DNA of 64,000 nt from a virus, in the IMG/VR virus record IMGVR_UViG_3300045988_161046, positions 32,001-96,000 of that record, one strand, 5' to 3'. Position 1 is the stretch's first letter. Every line of letters starts with the position of its first letter. A program made the position numbers and the translations under genes. Below are positions 31,031 through 55,708 of this stretch, one piece after another. The notes below the pieces were generated by a model. The model was not told where the DNA came from and did not search any database. It saw only the letters and a list, made by a program, of their open reading frames with translations.

Positions 31031-32143
31031 CTATTTCCCAATAAACCAATTTACGTTCCAATTATTACCATCATATATTAATTCTGTTCTCTGGTTGTAT
31101 GCACCCGAAGTGAAGCTATTTCTAGAAACTCCGTACCAAGACATATTATTAAGTGATGATTTAATAACAAAGTTGTCACCAGCTTGTATAAACTTATAAT
31201 ATTGACCTCTCTGAGGTTTATCGGGGAGTGTTAGCGTTACGCCTCTTGTTACTATAATGAAGCAATCCATCTCAGATAATGTAATACTCTTATTGACTTT
31301 TCTTGTCACAGGACGTAATCCAGCATACATTCCTCTAGATGCGCATATTGCAAAGTTGCCTGATGGTTCATCGGAATAGCTACTTTGTTCCCTTGTTCCA
31401 CCTTCGGCATGCAATACTAAACATGCCTTAGAATCGTCTGGTCGGTACTCTCGGTCGTCTATCCTTATATCAGATATTAGATTACTAATACCATAAATTG
31501 GGGAGACACGCTTTGTAGTACCAATCCAGATAATTCTATCATTAGTTGTATGGTCAGTTGTGTGTGTGAAGAATAAACTATTCTCTGATAATTGCATTGG
31601 TTTGTGCGTGGTGTTATAACCATCGTCATATTCTAAGATTCCATTGTCTGTCAATGTGAATCTACCTATTCTTCCCATTAACGCATAGATTGCTCCATCT
31701 TGCGTCACATGGAATGGAGCATTTTTAGCATTATCCGCACCAACAAAGAGAGGAGCATAGGTAGTATCATCTACCTTGCAAGCTTCCATATTCTCGGTAT
31801 TTCCGAAATATCCCACATTGGCAGTTCCGTCCTCGGACTTCGCCCAAAGATGCTTAACCTCGATTTTATCTGCATCAATCAGGTTAGCATTGAGCTTACC
31901 ATTACTGAACATGGCAATGGTGTTATTGTTCTCATCAATAACGCTCGTCTGCTTCGCCTTGATAGCAACACTATCCGAACCGATTACAATACCAGCCGCC
32001 GTCATGTCCTTAACCAACTGAGTAAAGTTCCCGATAGGCGTACTCTCATTCGTTGCAGTAATGAGACGAACAATCTCCGTCTCACTCGCTGTTTTGGGCT
32101 TTCTGCCTACCTTTACAACACCTTGCGCACTATGTCCAGCCAT
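31031..32143 (-). CDS. tail-fibre-like protein
   Basis: 370 aa; 'NLIDADKIEVKHLWAK' fibre-shaft-like segment; located in the fibre module. Confidence 0.4.
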   Translation of the reverse strand: MAGHSAQGVVKVGRKPKTASETEIVRLITATNESTPIGNFTQLVKDMTAAGIVIGSDSVAIKAKQTSVIDENNNTIAMFSNGKLNANLIDADKIEVKHLWAKSEDGTANVGYFGNTENMEACKVDDTTYAPLFVGADNAKNAPFHVTQDGAIYALMGRIGRFTLTDNGILEYDDGYNTTHKPMQLSENSLFFTHTTDHTTNDRIIWIGTTKRVSPIYGISNLISDIRIDDREYRPDDSKACLVLHAEGGTREQSSYSDEPSGNFAICASRGMYAGLRPVTRKVNKSITLSEMDCFIIVTRGVTLTLPDKPQRGQYYKFIQAGDNFVIKSSLNNMSWYGVSRNSFTSGAYNQRTELIYDGNNWNVNWFIGK

Positions 32144-49222: not shown

Positions 49223-49260
49223 TTTTTTTACCTTTTTACTTTTTTACTTTTTTACCTTTA
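49223..49260 (-). repeat. A-rich GGTAAAAAG junction repeat
   Basis: Spans the stop of 49258..51075 to just before the ATG at 49215. Confidence 0.8.
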
Positions 49261-51075
49261 AGAGACCTCTTGTTTCGCCACTCCGGTCTTCGAGTTATCG
49301 AGGGTAGTCAATACCTCCCGGTCAACCTGCCATACCAGGTGCTCGTCCCAATCGTTGAAGCGGCTCAAGACTTCCAGCGGGCGTATCATCAACTGCTGCA
49401 ATGGGGCAAACTGAATCTGCTTGACCAGGAAACGCTCTCTCAGGTCGGTACCGCCAGAGGACGCTGTATCACCAGGGGTGTTGCCGATGAGCTTTGCATC
49501 GAGACCCATGGCAAAGAAGATGATGCTGCTTATTTCCTGTAACTCGGTCTTGTCGGCATTCGCCTGATCATTTGCCTTGGTTTCGATTTCCACGATTTCC
49601 CAAGCCTTGTGCTCCTTTCCGTCGCTTCCCGTAAAGGCAGAAGAGATGAGTGCCTGACCTGCATTATCAGGGTTGGCGAGCCATGTATTGATGGAAGTGA
49701 AGATTTCATTCTGAATCTCACCCTGGGTTTTCTTTTTCTTCTCACCCTGCTGCTGATAGAGCCTGCTGATATAGTCCTGGTGGATATAGATGACACGACC
49801 GATGATGTTGCTGTTGCGCTTTCGGGTGAGGCGGTCATCTACGATGGTGAAGGCATATTCAAAGATGCTGCCGGCAAAGATGGAGTGCCAAAGGGCATCG
49901 GCATAATACGGACCACCGAAATCACGTGGCGACATGATGAAGCGGGTAGGGCGTTTCTTGCGGCTTACCTGCTTCTGACGTGCCTCACGTATCTTGCGCT
50001 GCAAATCCTTTACGGCTGATGTGGTAGGGAGATAAGGGATAGCCGCTATCTTGCGGTCTTCCTCCTTCTGCACACCGACGTATTGGGTTGGGTCGAGCCA
50101 CTGGTTGCTGACGTAGGCATAGTTGATGCGGTAGTTCTCGTCCATTCGTTCCAGTCGGGTGGTGAAAATACTGCGATGCTTCAGACCGATTACCTTCGGG
50201 GTCCATTGAGCGGTAGGAACAGCCTTGCCGTTTTCGTCGAGGGAACGCTGATTAAGCTGAAGTTCTACAAAGCATTGTGACATCAGAGCCATATCTCCTG
50301 CCAGGTCGAGGAAGGTCTGCATCAGGTCGTTATTCTCTATGAAATCACGAAGCTGGGTATTGGTTTCTTCCCATTTGTGGAGGGCTTCTTTCAGAGATTT
50401 CATCTCCTCGCTTTCCTCTTCATCGGAGGATAAGACCTGCGATGAAATCGCAGGGAACGGAGTCTCCTCTTGCTGAGACTGCCCGTTCTGGCTCTGCTGC
50501 TCGCTCTGGCGCTTGGCTTCGGCGGCTGCCTCTTCCTTGGCTTTGAGGTCGGCTATCTGACCACGGAGCAGAACTCCTGCACTCTCGTAGGGGATATATT
50601 TCTCTGTGATGTTTCCGCCTACATACTGGGTATAGTGATACTTTGGGGCGGGACCGCGACCTACCAGTATCTTCTTGATGTAATCAACTCCTGCTGCCGT
50701 AAAGGGCGACATACGGGAGAGCATCCAGATAAGGTTTGGCAGTCGGTTGGACATACCCCATTCCATAAAGCCTAAGCCTTCGGTACCTACGTCTTTCGGT
50801 TTACCCATGTTCTCGCCGCCACTTGATGCAAAGATTGTGGAGACTTGCTGACGTGCTGCAGAACCGCTTGCGTCGCCACCGCTTGCCGACATACCGGCTG
50901 TGGTCAGGAGCATGCTGTGAACGTAGTCGTTCCAGGAGAAGACTTTACCGCCACCATTCTTAAGCGGCGTAAAGGCATCCGGGCGAACGGCTACATAGCC
51001 TGCATCTTTCAGTTCCTCACTACGCTGTTGGAGCTGCTGCAGGTTGGTTACTCTGTTTCTGTTTTTGCTTGCCAT
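49258..51075 (-). CDS. portal-like protein (low confidence)
   Basis: 605 aa; heads an operon behind an N25 module; the C-terminal third has a portal-like pattern (from memory); the acidic insert contains hairpin-repeat copy 12. Confidence 0.35.
   Translation of the reverse strand: MASKNRNRVTNLQQLQQRSEELKDAGYVAVRPDAFTPLKNGGGKVFSWNDYVHSMLLTTAGMSASGGDASGSAARQQVSTIFASSGGENMGKPKDVGTEGLGFMEWGMSNRLPNLIWMLSRMSPFTAAGVDYIKKILVGRGPAPKYHYTQYVGGNITEKYIPYESAGVLLRGQIADLKAKEEAAAEAKRQSEQQSQNGQSQQEETPFPAISSQVLSSDEEESEEMKSLKEALHKWEETNTQLRDFIENNDLMQTFLDLAGDMALMSQCFVELQLNQRSLDENGKAVPTAQWTPKVIGLKHRSIFTTRLERMDENYRINYAYVSNQWLDPTQYVGVQKEEDRKIAAIPYLPTTSAVKDLQRKIREARQKQVSRKKRPTRFIMSPRDFGGPYYADALWHSIFAGSIFEYAFTIVDDRLTRKRNSNIIGRVIYIHQDYISRLYQQQGEKKKKTQGEIQNEIFTSINTWLANPDNAGQALISSAFTGSDGKEHKAWEIVEIETKANDQANADKTELQEISSIIFFAMGLDAKLIGNTPGDTASSGGTDLRERFLVKQIQFAPLQQLMIRPLEVLSRFNDWDEHLVWQVDREVLTTLDNSKTGVAKQEVS
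50436..50464 (+). repeat. GAACGG-hairpin repeat copy 12 (inside ORF, diverged)
   Basis: CCTGCGAT-GAA-ATCGCAGG + GAACGGAG; compensated A>T / T>A in the stem. Confidence 0.75.
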
Positions 51076-51173
51076 TTTTTTTGCGTTTCTTTTTTTTATG
51101 TTATCCTGAATATGATTGAAAGAGAGAAGGGTGGCGATATACGCACACCCGCTTTATCTCCTTGTTTCTGAGT

Positions 51174-51211
51174 GTAAAGTTAGGGCTTTTTATGGTTTTG
51201 GTGGGGACAAA
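51174..51211 (-). promoter_or_regulatory. N25-class promoter-like module TTTGTCCC-N21-TAACTTTA
   Basis: Minus strand TTTGTCCCCACCAAAACCATAAAAAGCCCTAACTTTA. Confidence 0.45.
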
Positions 51212-51223
51212 GAGGGGAGGGGA

Positions 51224-51253
51224 CCAGCGATAGAATCGCTGGGAACGGAGGCT
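51224..51253 (+). repeat. GAACGG-hairpin repeat copy 7
   Basis: Hairpin 51224-51242. Confidence 0.9.
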
Positions 51254-51260
51254 CCTCTTC

Positions 51261-51400
51261 TTATTCATAATTAATAATGATCATAAAATCTTTGGCGATG
51301 GAGGAGATGGCGTTACTGATACCCCCCCCGATTTCTAACCTTTGGGAGTGAGGGTTGGAGTACCAATCACCATCGGCTCTGCCTCTGCTTGCGCAGGTTC
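51261..51400 (-). pseudogene. C5-MTase TRD remnant (no usable start; internal TAG/TGA; G8 tract)
   Basis: My translation gives 'VIGTPTLTPKG*' and, in another frame, 'RLEIGGGISNAISSIAKDFMIIINYE*'. Confidence 0.4.
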
Positions 51401-51583
51401 TTATTCGTATTGTTGCCATAAAAGATTATCTTTCGTTACGGTGGAAATGCAGTTACTCCAGGGGTAGGAGCTTGGGCGATGATACTTATCCTGATAGCGG
51501 CAACCGCCTCTGTCGCCGTGTATCTTGCGATATGCCTTCGCTTCCTCGGTGCGATAGTGGGTAATGATGGCTTGCTTAATCAT
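51401..51583 (-). pseudogene. C5-MTase TRD mini-ORF e (RTEEAK...TKDNLL type)
   Basis: MIKQAIITHYRTEEAKAYRKIHG...NCISTVTKDNLLWQQYE*. Confidence 0.45.
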
Positions 51584-51740
51584 ACTCCACAAATATTTTG
51601 GGATGAAGTCCACCTCCCCCACATGTATTACAAGCAGGGGCTATGCCTTTTACCGAATACACTCGTTTTGCCAGTTGAAAGCGCTTATCAAAAGGAGGCG
51701 TATTCAGCAAGCCTACTACTATCGTATGTATTTCGTTCAT
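51576..51740 (-). pseudogene. C5-MTase TRD mini-ORF d (RVYS..GIAP..GGGG..PKI type)
   Basis: MNEIHTIVVGLLNTPPFDKRFQLAKRVYSVKGIAPACNTCGGGGLHPKIFVEYD*. Confidence 0.45.
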
Positions 51741-51749
51741 AACTTTTCT

Positions 51750-51926
51750 TTATTCATATCTGAAGGCAAGGAGATTATCCTTCGTGTGGAAGGTACCGAT
51801 GCACTGCATCAGGAAGCTGTCACGGAAGAAGATGGCTTTATCACGATAATCGTTGGTGCCAGTCTGCTTGCGTACTTCCTTGGCGTGCTCTGTTCTTGCC
51901 TCGTGAATGGCTAATATCTTAATCAT
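51750..51926 (-). pseudogene. C5-MTase TRD mini-ORF c (RTEHAK...TKDNLL type)
   Basis: MIKILAIHEARTEHAKEVRKQTGTNDYRDKAIFFRDSFLMQCIGTFHTKDNLLAFRYE*. Confidence 0.45.
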
Positions 51927-52020
51927 ATTCTATTAATACAAGGGGTGGCATATCATTAGGGTCATTCTCTTTCTCTTCGGAAGGAGGAATACTGCCTTTA
52001 TCTATTATAACCTTATTCAT
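51919..52020 (-). pseudogene. 33-aa linker mini-ORF b ending LIEYD*
   Basis: MNKVIIDKGSIPPSEEKENDPNDMPPLVLIEYD*. Confidence 0.35.
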
Positions 52021-52162
52021 ACTCTAATAATATTTTCGGTTTATCAACATCATGCCCTTTGCCCCCCCCACAAAGGCATAGGGCAATACCTTTCGGATGC
52101 ACGATAATGCCATTTTGGGATGGACTATAAGAACCGAGGATAATAGGACGATTACAAATCAT
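52013..52162 (-). pseudogene. C5-MTase TRD mini-ORF a (contains G8 tract)
   Basis: MICNRPIILGSYSPSQNGIIVHPKGIALCLCGGGKGHDVDKPKILLEYE*; ATGA overlap with the upstream ORF. Confidence 0.45.
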
Positions 52163-53460
52163 TTCTTCTCCAAAAACTGATGATACAAATTATCTAACTT
52201 TGGATTTTGGAACTTGCCGTTCTCTTTCCAGTCATTGAACAGCGGCATGATGATGTCCTCGTGAGCAGAAGAAATCTCCTCCTGCAGTTCTTTTAGAGTG
52301 CAATTCCAAAGATGCGCCTCTTCTATATAAAGAGTGAGGATGGCTTTCAATGCCATTGCATTCTCGTGGCTCGGCTCTATCTCGAACTGATGGAAGACGC
52401 AGGTGTCTTTATCGTTTGCCTGGAGGAATTTGCTGACGGCTTCATCTTTCAGGAAGAACCTTGTATCTACTTCTTCCTGCAACACATCTTCCAGCTTTCT
52501 CTTCAGCGGAATAGGGTCGGGGAACTGGTAATCGAAGGCTACATCTTTTCTCATCGAGAGGCAGAATACTCGGTCGCGGTTCTGCGGAACACCATAGTCT
52601 TTGGCATTGAGTCTTGCCCATCGGCTTACGTAACCGAGAGATGAGAGCTTATCAAGCCACTTCTGAAAATCGGGCATAAACTTCTCACTTACCAGGGCTG
52701 CCACATTCTCCTGGAGTAGATACTTCGGTCGCAATACTTCCACGGCATCGGCTACTCGCCACAATAATGCCGAGCGGGTATCGGAACCTTCCTTCAAACC
52801 CATCTGCTTGCCGGCTTGCGATATATCCTGACAAGGTGAGGAATAGGTAAAGAGGTCGATTTCTTGCCCCCCCACATTACGCTTTACCTGTTGCCAGTCG
52901 ATTTTGGTTATATCGCCCAAGGCTTTGTCGGCAAACTGCGGAAAGATGAGATTGTGCATCTGACAGGCATACTTATCTATATCGCTCCAGCCTACACACG
53001 TCCAGCGGAAATCAGGGTGCTGCTGGGCGAGGACATCGGCTGCCATCAACTGCGAGTCGTAACCGGAGAAGGTGGTGAGGATAAGTTTCTCGCCATGGTT
53101 CTTATCTACCGGATAGGTAGGGAGTTGGTCTTCTGGGAAGAAATCGGCAAAAAATGAAGTCTGCGCCTCATGCTTCGGTTCTTTCGGGTACCAGAGTTGC
53201 TGATAGATGGCTGCGAGCACATCTACCACGATGGAGTTACCTGCCTGCTTGTATTGCTGACTGGCTGATACTGCCATATCTTCTGCCTTTCCCTTGCTCT
53301 TATAGCCGGCTACTCGCTCGGCTGCCTGGGCGTTGGTACTTTGCATCGTGCGGATCACATCATCACGCACACCCATCAGTCGAAAACACTCGAAGGGTGT
53401 CAGCTTTCGGATGGCATAAGACTTAATGGTCTTATCCTTGAAATTGAACTTTGTTATCAT
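52159..53460 (-). CDS. cytosine-C5 DNA methyltransferase, circularly permuted motif order (IX-X then I-IV-VI-VIII)
   Basis: 'IRKLTPFECFRLMGV' (IX), 'YKQAGNSIVVDVL' (X), 'LTTFSGYDSQ' (I), 'SSPCQDIS' (IV), 'LLQENVAAL' (VI), 'VPQNRDRVF' (VIII). Confidence 0.8.
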   Translation of the reverse strand: MITKFNFKDKTIKSYAIRKLTPFECFRLMGVRDDVIRTMQSTNAQAAERVAGYKSKGKAEDMAVSASQQYKQAGNSIVVDVLAAIYQQLWYPKEPKHEAQTSFFADFFPEDQLPTYPVDKNHGEKLILTTFSGYDSQLMAADVLAQQHPDFRWTCVGWSDIDKYACQMHNLIFPQFADKALGDITKIDWQQVKRNVGGQEIDLFTYSSPCQDISQAGKQMGLKEGSDTRSALLWRVADAVEVLRPKYLLQENVAALVSEKFMPDFQKWLDKLSSLGYVSRWARLNAKDYGVPQNRDRVFCLSMRKDVAFDYQFPDPIPLKRKLEDVLQEEVDTRFFLKDEAVSKFLQANDKDTCVFHQFEIEPSHENAMALKAILTLYIEEAHLWNCTLKELQEEISSAHEDIIMPLFNDWKENGKFQNPKLDNLYHQFLEKK

Positions 53461-53490
53461 CTTGTTTTGCTCTATAAATCTTTTCTTTGT

Positions 53491-53817
53491 TTATAATTCT
53501 ACGAATACAAACGGATTGCTGCTGGCTGCCGTGAGTGTATTCACCATTTTACCCCCCCCAACTGTGCGGCTGCGTCTTAGGGCAGAGGTAGGGTAGTTCA
53601 AATCGGCTACACCGGGTGCAGGGCAATCGGTATAGCCTTGCTCTGTAGCCTGACGGATGCGCAGGAATGTTTCTCCTTCTATATCCACGATTTCAAGAAA
53701 CGGACGGTCGGAGGTGGAGTATATCCGATAGAGAGAACCATCTGGATAAAAGCCATATCTCTTTCCGTTCAAGATAATCGTTCCTCGCTTGTATTGAGGT
53801 TGGTTATTGCTACTCAT
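53491..53817 (-). CDS. stand-alone C5-MTase TRD-like ORF, in frame with the MTase across one TAA
   Basis: 'IRQATEQGYTDCPAPGVADLNYPTSALRRSRTVGGGKMVNTLTAASS'; the stop at 53491-93 is 33 nt (11 codons) upstream of the ATG at 53460. Confidence 0.55.
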   Translation of the reverse strand: MSSNNQPQYKRGTIILNGKRYGFYPDGSLYRIYSTSDRPFLEIVDIEGETFLRIRQATEQGYTDCPAPGVADLNYPTSALRRSRTVGGGKMVNTLTAASSNPFVFVEL

Positions 53818-53938
53818 ACTCTATCATTATGCAGTGTGGGCATTTATAATCGGTGGCTCTGAGCGCAGAAGAAAGCTCCCCCCCATTTCTTCCATTCCTG
53901 TTTACGGCTCAAAGGGTGTACAGATGCCTTTACATCTA

Positions 53939-55045
53939 TCATTTGTTCCTCCTCATCTTTTCCATTTCCTCATTCTCTTTCGACAACCTTTCGAGATGTT
54001 CGAGAACGAGGGAATAAGACTGAGTATTGACCTGATCTTCCGTTAGGCCGACATACTTCTGCATCGTAGCGGTGGTGACGGTGTAGATCTCCATCGGGGT
54101 TTGCGGCTTGGTGTTGTTTGCCTTCTGTACCTTGAACACGTGAGGGTAGCGATGAGCTAGGGTGTGCATGATGCCCGTCCACCAGAAGAGGATGACCTGC
54201 CAGTTTGCCTCTGGGAAATTGACGAAATACTTTGCGTTCTCGGTGAACTGCTTTGACTCGTAATGAAAATCGTATTTCGTGATGCCTGTTGTCGGATCGA
54301 CGTACTGGGTGGTGGTGTTGAAGATGGTGGCAAGGAACATGTTTCTGGCGCTAGCTACGCTCTGAGCTTGCGTCTGAAGTTGCTCCTCGATGAACTTATC
54401 CATCTGCTTCATCTTTACCAGGTTATTGCTTAACTTGGTGTAGGTCTGCATCATATCGCTAGCAAAACGGTATTGCTGCCAGGAAAAGCCATCGAGGTCT
54501 GTACTCGGACCGCGGAAGGCTTTGGCACGACGATACCACTTGGCTTTCTGTCCGATGAGCGGATAGGGGAAGAGGGTGAGGAAATTGCCGCTGTCTGCAT
54601 CCAGCCAGTCGAGAAGACCTGCGCCCTGAGCGATATACTCAGGGGAGGTTTTATCCTTGGTCTTGGCTTTCGGAGAGAGCCAATAGTTGAGCTGCCAAAG
54701 ATAGAGGGGAAAGTGGCTGCCGGACTGCGGACCAGCGATAGAATCGCTGGGAACGGGGGCGCAGAGGGAGAGGAGCTTCTTCAGAAGGCTCTTCTTCTGC
54801 GGCTCTATGCTTACCAGGTAGTGCTGCTCATTGATAGGCATGCGAGGGTCGGGATAGGCATTGATGCCTATTCCGGCAAAAAGGAAGAAAACGGCTATCT
54901 TCACCTTCTGCATATCGAAGGGGTGATAGCGGTCTGCCTTGGCTATCTGCTCCAGCATGATGAGGGCAATCTGCTCCAGCTGGGTAGGGGTGCATTGGTT
55001 CCAGCCGCGGGGGATGGTGAGGTTTATCTGTTCTTGCATAATCAT
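53939..55045 (-). CDS. hypothetical protein (carries in-frame hairpin-repeat copy 8)
   Basis: 368-aa ORF. Confidence 0.5.
   Translation of the reverse strand: MIMQEQINLTIPRGWNQCTPTQLEQIALIMLEQIAKADRYHPFDMQKVKIAVFFLFAGIGINAYPDPRMPINEQHYLVSIEPQKKSLLKKLLSLCAPVPSDSIAGPQSGSHFPLYLWQLNYWLSPKAKTKDKTSPEYIAQGAGLLDWLDADSGNFLTLFPYPLIGQKAKWYRRAKAFRGPSTDLDGFSWQQYRFASDMMQTYTKLSNNLVKMKQMDKFIEEQLQTQAQSVASARNMFLATIFNTTTQYVDPTTGITKYDFHYESKQFTENAKYFVNFPEANWQVILFWWTGIMHTLAHRYPHVFKVQKANNTKPQTPMEIYTVTTATMQKYVGLTEDQVNTQSYSLVLEHLERLSKENEEMEKMRRNK
54730..54762 (+). repeat. GAACGG-hairpin repeat copy 8 (inside ORF)
   Basis: Consensus hairpin at 54732-54750, encoding 'APVPSDSIAGP'. Confidence 0.9.
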
Positions 55046-55153: not shown

Positions 55154-55708
55154 TTAAAATATGATTTTCTTGCCGCCATTGGCGATGAGGGAGCCGTATT
55201 TGATGGCTTCTAATCTGCGGAGCCAGCCTTTCTCAAATACCTTCTGACTAGGGTGCTTGGCGATGATGCCGGAGATGTATTGCTTGCGGCGTACCTTGAT
55301 GCGGGCGAAGAACTGACTAGGGTTCTGGGCGTTGAGGGCAGCGAGGGTCTGCTTGCCTACGATGCCATCGGCTGTTACGCCCAGCATGGCTTGCACGAGG
55401 GTGATGCCTGGAGTACCGCTAGACCATACCCAATCTACCAGAATGTTGGCAATGCTCTGGTCTTTGATGCCATCGGCTTTCCATCGGTTCCAATAACAGC
55501 GGCGAAGGATGGCAGTGAAATCGGCTTTGGTGATAAGCTTTACATCCTTTGCATCGATGCGGCCATCATGGTTCTTGTCATAACCTTGGGTTTGCCAGGT
55601 TTTCAGCGTTACGCCCATGTTGGTAGGGCCGCCCTTGTCGTTGGGGTGGTTTACGTAACCTCCTTCAAAGGAGAGAATGAAATCTGCAAGAGGTTGAATC
55701 TTTGCCAT
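55154..55708 (-). CDS. endolysin, GH108 N-acetylmuramidase with peptidoglycan-binding C-domain
   Basis: 'FEGGYVNHPNDKGGPTNMGVT' GH108 signature; 'GVTADGIVGKQTLAAL' PG-binding-like. Confidence 0.8.
   Translation of the reverse strand: MAKIQPLADFILSFEGGYVNHPNDKGGPTNMGVTLKTWQTQGYDKNHDGRIDAKDVKLITKADFTAILRRCYWNRWKADGIKDQSIANILVDWVWSSGTPGITLVQAMLGVTADGIVGKQTLAALNAQNPSQFFARIKVRRKQYISGIIAKHPSQKVFEKGWLRRLEAIKYGSLIANGGKKIIF

Follow-up and report, generated by a model that had tools for sequence, protein, structure and literature searches.

How could a cytosine-C5 DNA methyltransferase (C5-MTase) find its targets if it carries no target-recognition domain (TRD) of its own? C5-MTases are regarded as single-chain enzymes with their specificity built in, and the question is raised by a locus in the virus with IMG/VR record IMGVR_UViG_3300045988_161046, of which we analyzed the stretch of 64,000 nucleotides (nt) from position 32,001 to 96,000 (hereafter called the window and numbered from its first letter). 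On the minus strand of the window, a circularly permuted C5-MTase core of 433 amino acids (aa) stands in a train of small open reading frames (ORFs), which an earlier note, made from the letters alone, had singled out as a permuted or split enzyme followed by TRD mini-ORFs. The reading that we favor, with a probability of roughly 0.6, is that of a disassembled multispecific C5-MTase, in which translationally coupled free TRD micro-subunits would serve one core in trans, poly-G tracts would make the system phase-variable, and the cassettes would recombine. Coordinates of all features are collected in Table 1.

A permuted catalytic core without a TRD

The 433-aa core carries the motifs of C5-cytosine DNA methyltransferases (PF00145) in the order IX (RKLTPFE), X (GNSIV), I (FSGYDS), IV (SPCQD), VI (ENV), and VIII (QNRDR), followed by a helical C-terminal extension. 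The earlier note had read the same permuted order, and it was borne out by a Pfam search, in which PF00145 matched the core in two stretches (E = 1e-50), and by alignment with entries of the PDB. There, M.MpeI and M.HhaI were matched with E = 1e-28 to 1e-21, core residues 13-47 corresponding to M.MpeI 331-365 (motif IX onward) and core residues 187-358 to M.MpeI 112-286. Judged by its motifs, the core product is a C5-cytosine methyltransferase, and production of 5-methylcytosine is predicted. Neither Pfam nor the PDB alignments detected a recognizable TRD in the core, and only 12 residues precede motif IX.

In back-translated searches, 136 IMG/VR phage contigs, of which many measure about 100 kb, proved to encode the permuted core at full length and with 66-97% identity. 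The protein database held thousands of C5-MTase homologues of the core; the best 120 were nearly all full-length and 70-98% identical, and some clusters comprised hundreds to more than 1,000 member sequences. A rare exception to the separation of core and mini-ORFs is the protein P0090 (482 aa, 4 contigs), in which a frameshift near the C-terminus of the core joins it to a TRD of mini-ORF family 0 through a 20-residue out-of-frame linker. An AlphaFold2 model of this natural fusion was used as a proxy for the complex and reached a predicted local distance difference test score (pLDDT) of 64 for the whole chain and under 40 for the TRD. At this low confidence, a fold search with the model matched only the C5-MTase fold, and a beta-hairpin was predicted at the core N-terminus, directly ahead of motif IX.

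Mini-ORFs related to the TRDs of phage methyltransferases

The 108-aa ORF upstream of the core and the mini-ORFs downstream of it are present where the earlier note had placed them, and the core was flanked by mini-ORF trains in every relative examined. Counts of ORF endings, families, and tracts were taken over 81 related loci. The small ORFs of the window end in a hydrophobic residue followed by E/Q/N-Y-E/D-stop, and the 108-aa ORF ends in VEL-stop. This pattern of endings, which the earlier note had seen in the window, recurs in the relatives, where YD, YE, or YA closes 504 small plus-strand ORFs and EL closes 132; on the minus strand, none of these is among the 15 endings that ORFs have most often, and the most frequent ending there occurs 52 times. 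The 653 ORFs collected fell into about 30 recurrent families, 29 of which have at least five members. At present such mini-genes are annotated as hypothetical or left uncalled.

The profile of family 6, RVYS.KG..P....GGG...K(I/V)...E(Y/L), retrieved only C5-MTases from the PDB and aligned with M.MpeI 301-329 and M.HhaI 239-257, the TRD recognition loops just ahead of motif IX. Since this alignment ends at M.MpeI residue 329 and that of the core starts at residue 331, the break falls exactly at the boundary between TRD and motif IX, and a mini-ORF set in series with the core N-terminus rebuilds the canonical sequence from TRD to motif IX. In the 595-aa single-chain MTase of Bacillus phage vB_BceS_LY1, families 6, 4, and 3 match the consecutive segments 408-437 (E = 2e-8), 444-498 (E = 6e-7, with residues 52-108 of the L009 member), and 495-532 (E = 2e-7), all of which sit directly ahead of motif IX of that enzyme. 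Family 3 also matches (E = 5e-16) the TRD of the 128-aa beta subunit of Streptococcus phage Javan179, a split MTase whose beta subunit is laid out as TRD-IX-X; searched against the PDB, the family 3 profile returned spurious lectin repeats only. The EYE ending is a native module boundary in fused TRDs as well, for instance in LY1 (...HPKVIEY/VNGE..., with the slash at the boundary) and in contig L207 (...NFIMEYE/IIPILRISEATKTGY...).

Homologues of families 0 and 4 are themselves small, which indicates that separation of the TRD from the core is their normal, long-standing state. All 89 family 0 homologues found in a word search measure 36-83 aa, and an exhaustive search of 1.84 billion representative proteins with a hidden Markov model gave 72 family 0 matches, almost all of 33-178 aa and none of them a canonical MTase. 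Among the 120 family 4 matches listed of 171, all are of 83-154 aa and none carries a DNA_methylase Pfam domain. The LY1, Javan179, and family 6 PDB matches support the interpretation, also put forward in the earlier note, of the mini-ORFs as candidate TRD modules akin to the ones found in multispecific phage MTases.

Conservation in relatives and in a second lineage

The number of intact cassettes per genome has a median of 8 and a range of 2-12, and the combination of cassettes differs in almost every genome. In their own frame, 20 of the 20 families tested gave ratios of nonsynonymous to synonymous substitution (dN/dS) of 0.07-0.33, with a proportion of synonymous differences (pS) of up to 0.56, versus about 1-2 for most families (range 0.38-5.8) in a frame-shifted control; the comparison was of intact ORFs only and thus carries some ascertainment bias. 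We regard the signal, which points to purifying selection on all 20 tested families, as strong.

A search with family 3 led to a second lineage (L132 and L137-L142), whose core is 24% identical to that of the window and collinear with it (IX-X-I-IV-VI-VIII; PF00145, E = 1e-39). Around the cores of this lineage lie ORFs of 41-65 aa whose ...YE(K)-stop endings overlap an ATG (TATGARAARTAR), and poly-G tracts are present at these loci too. The G tract of the core lies elsewhere, in the motif I region (FDGISGGQ), where G6 leaves the frame intact (L145, L147) and G7 (L153) and G8 (L157) break it. That these three features were kept or re-invented at 24% core identity argues for a function.

Further relatives bear on the origin of the permutation. 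In L163-L205 (e.g., L174 4001-6108), two canonical C5-MTase genes stand in tandem, the first with several TRDs, and the permuted core is collinear with the IX-X tail of gene 1 joined to the I-VIII head of gene 2. This suggests a plausible evolutionary route to the permutation through tandem MTase genes. An intermediate architecture is found in L207 (3986-5661), where a 246-aa alpha ORF with motifs I-VIII is accompanied by a TRD-like ORF of 69 aa and a beta ORF of 180 aa, in which two TRDs are fused in frame ahead of motifs IX-X (the first ending in ...NFIMEYE).

The strict linkage of the mini-genes to a TRD-less core in two lineages that are only 24% identical also bears on the alternative that stands up best, unlikely as it is: the mini-proteins would be real and independent of the core, acting as regulators or else against the host's restriction or methylation enzymes, as decoys or inhibitors, and the core would be inactive, non-specific, or served by another partner. 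Such a role would sit well with the lack of a precedent for trans-acting free TRDs and with train members that are not TRD-like, such as family 9 and the zinc-ribbon-like ORFs of relatives. It fits poorly with the linkage, with the homology of families 3, 4, and 6 to bona fide TRDs directly ahead of motif IX, and with a core that has poly-G switches like those of the cassettes.

Junctions, probable translational coupling, and cassette turnover

Adjacent mini-ORFs meet at a short repeated junction. The earlier note had noticed its recurrent 12-mer, and the enrichment is real: TATGAWTAA occurs six times in the 64-kb window versus 2.24 expected, and five of the six occurrences lie on the minus strand within 51261-52021. 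Among about 360 pairs of adjacent cassettes in the relatives, the overlap is exactly 8 nt (ATG-NNN-stop) in 241 and 4 nt (ATGA) in 32. The others overlap by 14 or 19 nt or lie 2-15 nt apart (3-9 nt in most cases), except that overlaps or gaps are longer in about 30 of them. The Tyr codon of the junction is TAT, which makes the overlapping ATG, in 91% of cases, the stop codon is TAA in 359 cassettes, TGA in 93, and TAG in 52, and the E and D codons vary at their wobble positions. The preference for TAT, the varied stops, and the wobble indicate that the 12-mer is kept as coding sequence with an overlapping start and not as a rigid DNA site. With its 8-nt and 4-nt overlaps of stop and start, the junction has the standard geometry of termination-reinitiation, which fits translational coupling, one of the modes of expression that had been suggested before. 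A scan for sigma-70 promoters and terminators did not rise above chance, and within the train it showed no terminator-like site on the coding strand.

Two other suggested modes of expression did not hold up. The 108-aa ORF is in frame with the core across a single TAA in the window, as had been claimed, with a spacer of 30 nt between the ORF and the core ATG; in relatives, however, this spacer measures 29, 30, 31, 32, 68, 133, or 134 nt, and since the frame is kept in only 6 of 20 loci, the in-frame TAA of the window is a coincidence. As a recent nonsense mutation or a read-through site, this TAA was rejected on the varying spacer and on the small size of the family 4 homologues. Read-through is further contradicted by the use of three stop codons and by the different frames of successive ORFs, and a single programmed frameshift by the differing overlaps (8, 4, 19, and 14 nt) and gaps (3-9 nt).

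Heterogeneous junctions, all three stop codons, and a variable upstream spacer argue in the same way against programmed recoding in general (+1 frameshifting at the stop, hopping, or read-through), which would join mini-ORFs and core into one multispecific chain bearing TRDs at either end and to which we give little chance. Six to twelve recoding events would be required in succession, no slippery site was found, fusions are very rare among thousands of homologues, and the window contains no tRNA genes (hence no suppressor tRNA) and no Rfam families. What speaks for recoding is that the next ORF is in the +1 frame relative to the stop at the commonest junction, that single-chain enzymes with the same TRDs in tandem exist, and that P0090 is a natural frameshift fusion of core and family 0.

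Wherever the window has a cassette more or less than the relatives L010, L001, and L004, homology breaks exactly at TATGA/ATGA on either side of that cassette, at some breakpoints with a duplication of about 30 nt, which supports the junction as a site of cassette gain and loss between genomes. The cassette exchange proposed in the earlier note has stood to this extent, but the junction does not look like a fixed recombination site. Families 2, 4, 19, 21, 24, and 30 were found on either side of the core. Breakpoints exactly on the junction repeats and an array content that differs in nearly every genome would also be expected of a silent store, in which only the cassette recombined into an expression position beside the core is used, as in pilS/pilE or hsdS shufflons. 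This we consider still less probable than recoding. All cassettes come with an ATG and a stop codon of their own and appear to be under purifying selection, cassettes stand on both sides of the core, fusion of cassette and core is never the normal state, and the wobble variation of the junction is that of coding sequence, unlike a fixed recombination site; no recombinase or inverted repeats were seen, though no search aimed at either was made.

Poly-G tracts as predicted switches

The poly-G tracts, which the earlier account of the locus had passed over, came to light in this analysis. The window contains five G/C homopolymers of at least 7 nt, and all of them lie at 51322-53884 with G on the coding strand. 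In the 81 loci, 177 G runs of at least 7 nt compare with 10 such C runs, and they cluster in the core and the arrays. The tracts encode Gly-Gly(-Gly), often in the Gly-rich loop of a TRD; GGG accounts for 20% of the Gly codons of the locus versus 3% in 17 other large genes of the phage, and four GGG-GGG pairs in the locus compare with none among the 48 Gly-Gly pairs elsewhere in the phage.

Tracts with identical 8-nt flanks have 6, 7, 8, or 9 G depending on the contig, and tract length sets the frame. Of 55 family 4 copies that have G5, G8, or G11 or lack a G run of at least 5, all but one are intact (54/55), and those with G6, G7, or G9 are all frameshifted (12/12); for family 3, G5 and G8 copies are intact (20/20) and G6 and G7 copies frameshifted (8/8). 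Overall, 90 of 182 copies with at least 6 G are frameshifted (49%) versus 65 of 689 for the rest (9%; odds ratio 9.4, p = 1e-30). A G8 tract in the core splits it into 269 + 172 aa; this was the sole indel relative to the window in the four contigs checked (L081, L082, L085, and L087, from different samples in ENA and Logan), and at least 24 contigs carry the same 172-aa fragment. The homopolymers thus lie within ORFs, vary in length between isolates, and set the frame, as in a phase-variable locus; this is the signature of simple-sequence contingency loci, and switching is predicted. A canonical, non-permuted C5-MTase on a rabbit-gut Clostridia metagenome-assembled genome (MAG) contig (L096 4043-5181) is frameshifted at a G7 in its TRD (TIRRGGE...), so that poly-G switching of TRDs may reach beyond this phage group.

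That the locus is merely a decaying multispecific methylase gene, with sequencing or assembly errors behind the poly-G differences, is hardly credible in spite of the many frameshifted copies and of data that all come from metagenome assemblies, as the frameshifts concentrate at G tracts and 91% of copies without long tracts are intact, tract length obeys a period-3 rule, independent assemblies of several ENA and Logan samples gave the same G8 core allele, the use of rare GGG codons is specific to the locus, dN/dS is 0.07-0.33, the architecture recurs in 136 contigs and a second lineage converged on the same design, and neither relatives with one intact colinear MTase gene nor random indels elsewhere in the cassettes were found. 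The mini-ORF array is a conserved system and not the decaying array that the earlier note had held possible.

Proposed mechanism

In the disassembled C5-MTase that we propose, one gene would supply the catalytic core, permuted (IX-X-I-VIII) and without a TRD, and each mini-gene of 33-108 aa, on both sides of the core, would be one TRD module. The mini-genes would be read in series by termination-reinitiation, because the next ATG lies within the last codons of the preceding ORF. A free TRD peptide would dock non-covalently in the gap between the C-terminus of the core (after motif VIII and the helical extension) and its N-terminus (before motif IX), probably through the conserved hydrophobic-E-Y-E/D C-terminal strand, which leads into motif IX in single-chain enzymes. 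Each TRD would steer the shared core to a different DNA motif, so that many motifs would be methylated and several host (Type II) restriction enzymes escaped. Slippage at the G tracts would turn single specificities, or the entire enzyme, on and off, and the resulting phage population would be mixed in its methylation repertoires, which could hedge against methylation-dependent restriction or the cost of methylation. Over evolutionary time, recombination at the short junction repeats would add and remove cassettes. With methylation predicted, the phage could probably vary its methylated motifs to escape host restriction. We see an even chance for the fullest form of this proposal, in which free specificity micro-subunits of about 50 aa plug into the TRD-less permuted core and poly-G switching of each of them and of the core yields combinatorial, reversible methylomes as a bet-hedge between methylation-sensitive and methylation-dependent restriction.

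Several points weigh against the proposal. Its main uncertainty is the trans step, the binding of free TRD peptides to the core being a prediction about which the low-confidence P0090 model gives no docking information. In natural split C5-MTases, which serve as precedents, the TRD and motifs IX-X stay fused. Family 6 resembles TRD loops of PDB entries only weakly (E = 0.4-0.9), and an AlphaFold2 model of family 4 alone (62 homologues, pLDDT 69) is all-beta with no significant fold match in the PDB. Family 9 is without obvious TRD likeness, and the trains of relatives also contain members that are not TRD-like, L010 5299-5490 and 5629-5802 among them. Most families hold to one side of the core, and position independence is only partial. 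Finally, the differences in tract length come from consensus metagenome assemblies, and some could be assembly errors. On the other side of the balance, assembly in trans is made plausible by fragment complementation and circular permutation, both of which have been established by experiment for C5-MTases (PMC5944983, PMC3404938).

The two ORFs of L010 named above are conserved and zinc-ribbon-like, one of 63 aa with two CxxC pairs and one of 57 aa with CxxC...H.

Relation to known systems

Permuted (M.BssHII-like), split (M.AquI-like), and multi-TRD (Bacillus phage SPR/phi3T-like) C5-MTases all exist. The multispecific enzymes of Bacillus phages, such as M.SPRI, M.phi3TI, M.rho11sI, M.H2I, and M.phiBssHII, carry several TRDs of about 40-60 aa, each for a different target, and have an anti-restriction role; work on them is listed among the references of PMC8936443. 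The locus resembles them in that one core would serve several short TRD modules, with six intact mini-ORFs besides family 9 and one frameshifted mini-ORF in the window, and in its phage-encoded anti-restriction role, which is predicted here. The closest sequence relative examined, the LY1 MTase, is laid out as the classical multispecific enzymes are, and its module ends coincide with those of the mini-ORFs. In the multispecific enzymes, however, all TRDs are held in one chain between motifs VIII and IX, whereas each candidate TRD here has its own ORF, the ORFs stand on both sides of a permuted core, and poly-G tracts are present.

C5-MTases that are circularly permuted in nature, with the permutation point in the variable region, include M.BssHII, M.Alw26I, M2.Eco31I, M.Esp3I, and M2.BsaI (PMC5944983). 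The core shares with the M.BssHII type the placement of motifs IX-X before I-VIII and a permutation point in the variable region. Unlike that type, which has its TRD in the same chain, N-terminal to motif IX, it starts at motif IX without a TRD, and in all relatives a stop codon and 29-134 nt of spacer stand between it and the TRD-like 108-aa ORF. Activity from separate polypeptides broken in the variable region is established for M.AquI and for engineered C5-MTase fragments (references given in PMC5944983; PMC3404938). Separate polypeptides, whose assembly is predicted here, are common to the locus and to the M.AquI and Javan179 pairs, and the Javan179 beta subunit carries a family-3-like TRD. 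These pairs, however, are two fixed subunits, with motifs I-VIII in alpha and the TRD fused to IX-X in beta, whereas motifs IX-X and I-VIII of the window lie in one 433-aa chain from which only the TRD is detached, with many alternative TRDs.

Phasevarions and the poly-G Type IIG enzyme Cj0031 of Campylobacter are examples of phase-variable methyltransferases. Hypermutable poly-G tracts are also known in Campylobacter phages, according to the account that PMC12823448 gives of Sorensen et al. (2021, Cell Rep 35:109214). In all these cases, as in the locus, G homopolymers lie in ORFs, differ in length between isolates, and set the frame; unlike them, with one switch per enzyme or switches in receptor-binding genes, the locus would have several switches on specificity modules and one on the core. 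Type I HsdS subunits and shufflons offer an analogy only, in their separate specificity polypeptide and in variation by recombination or repeats; they concern N6-adenine methylation by HsdM2S1 complexes with TRDs of about 150 aa and invertase-driven shuffling, and have no homology to the locus.

We know of no case of a free-standing TRD, and a literature search, with most subscription journals outside its coverage, found no description of one or of this architecture. If the proposal is true, the locus would encode the first C5-methylase with exchangeable trans-acting specificity subunits, a functional parallel of Type I HsdS. Specificity set in trans by a 50-residue peptide would change the single-chain picture of these enzymes and provide a natural swappable toolkit for targeted, programmable 5-methylcytosine methylation. 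It would also show abundant gut phages (hundreds of contigs) tracking the diverse restriction of Prevotella-like hosts by cassette turnover and hypermutable switches.

Organization of the locus in the window

Table 1. Features of the methyltransferase locus, in window coordinates (ON and OFF, in frame and out of frame at the tract)
Feature	Position	Strand	Basis or state
C5-cytosine methyltransferase core (predicted), 433 aa, circularly permuted	52159..53460	minus	Pfam PF00145, PDB alignments
Family 7 mini-gene (putative TRD), frameshifted (OFF) at G7 tract	53810..53942	minus	intact 43-aa form in relatives
Family 4 mini-gene (putative TRD), 108 aa, ends FVFVEL	53491..53817	minus	LY1 MTase match, dN/dS = 0.11
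Family 0 mini-gene (putative TRD), 49 aa	52013..52162	minus	small homologues only, dN/dS = 0.10
Family 9 mini-gene, 33 aa, acidic, ends LIEYD	51919..52020	minus	in 19 loci, dN/dS = 0.17
Family 1 mini-gene (putative TRD), 58 aa, RTEHAK...TKDNLL type	51750..51926	minus	dN/dS = 0.13
Possible relay ORF, MNKEKL, six codons	51737..51757	minus	read directly from sequence
Family 6 mini-gene (putative TRD), 54 aa, RVYSVKGIAP...GGGG...PKIFVEYD	51576..51740	minus	C5-MTase PDB profile matches, LY1 match
Family 1 mini-gene (putative TRD), second copy, 60 aa, ends QQYE	51401..51583	minus	family membership
Family 3 mini-gene (putative TRD), 52 aa	51261..51419	minus	Javan179 beta subunit and LY1 matches
Junction 12-mer GAGTATGAATAA, encodes E-Y-E-stop, next ATG in +1 frame	52013..52024	minus	direct reading
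Further junctions	51919-51930, 51750-51761, 51576-51587, 51401-51412, 51261-51272, 53810-53821	minus	direct reading
G7 in core, codons N-V-G-G-Q	52867..52873	minus	ON
G8 in family 4, T-V-G-G-G-K	53552..53559	minus	ON
G7 in family 7, out of frame	53878..53884	minus	OFF; same-flank tracts 6 or 7 G
G8 in family 0	52062-52069	minus	ON
G8 in family 3	51322-51329	minus	ON

The train begins with the family 7 cassette, whose ATG overlaps, at 53939-53942 on the minus strand, the TGA of an upstream 368-aa gene, and it appears, from this overlap, to be translationally coupled to that gene. After the frameshift, the cassette runs on as ...ALRATDYKCPHCIMIEYE to a TAG; L001 and L010 have it intact, as the 43-aa form MIDVK...ALRATDYKCPHCIRIEYE, and, as read from the sequence, a G6 tract would restore the frame. 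The junction that the earlier note had placed upstream of the 108-aa ORF is there, but it is the end of this family 7 cassette, which had been overlooked.

The ATG of family 0 overlaps the stop codon of the core (ATGA). Downstream of the core lie six intact ORFs of 49, 33, 58, 54, 60, and 52 aa, where the earlier note had counted five and a remnant; the supposed remnant is an intact member of family 3, which was seen in 52 loci, and it starts 19 nt ahead of the stop codon of the preceding ORF. In that preceding ORF, the second family 1 copy, the Tyr codon is TAC and not TAT, so that the overlapping ATG is missing; its ending, CAATACGAATAA, occurs 21 times in relatives. Between the first family 1 copy and family 6, the MNKEKL ORF has its ATG inside the AGATATGAATAA junction, its stop codon (TGA) and the start codon of the next cassette overlap as ATGA, and it looks like a relay that takes re-initiating ribosomes over a 9-nt gap. 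An ORF that starts from the ATG of the last junction (51101..51268, minus strand) does not keep its frame in relatives. Just past the last cassette, a perfect 7-bp hairpin (CCAGCGA-ttcta-TCGCTGG, 51224-51242, minus strand) is followed by a C/T-rich stretch without a U run.

Phage context and host

The locus is flanked on the minus strand by the 368-aa gene (53939..55045), a conserved neighbor in relatives without a Pfam or PHROG match, and by a 605-aa ORF (49258..51075) for which no database match was found and whose reading as a portal gene is provisional. The only PHROG annotations on neighboring genes are endolysin and head maturation protease, and most large ORFs of the window have no PHROG match. 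The DNA of the locus matched none of 50,697 GenBank phage records. Names attached to core homologues are limited to 'Caudoviricetes sp.' and 'Prevotella sp.' MAGs. Two of eight matches in genome collections fall in bins labeled Prevotella; the other bins, perhaps mis-binned, are labeled Oscillibacter, Clostridium, Oscillospiraceae, Anaerobutyricum, Clostridia, and unclassified. The virus is probably a gut phage of roughly 100 kb, with Prevotella as a tentative host. Two genes upstream of the locus is its endolysin gene (55154-55708, minus strand; PHROG 315, E = 1e-36).

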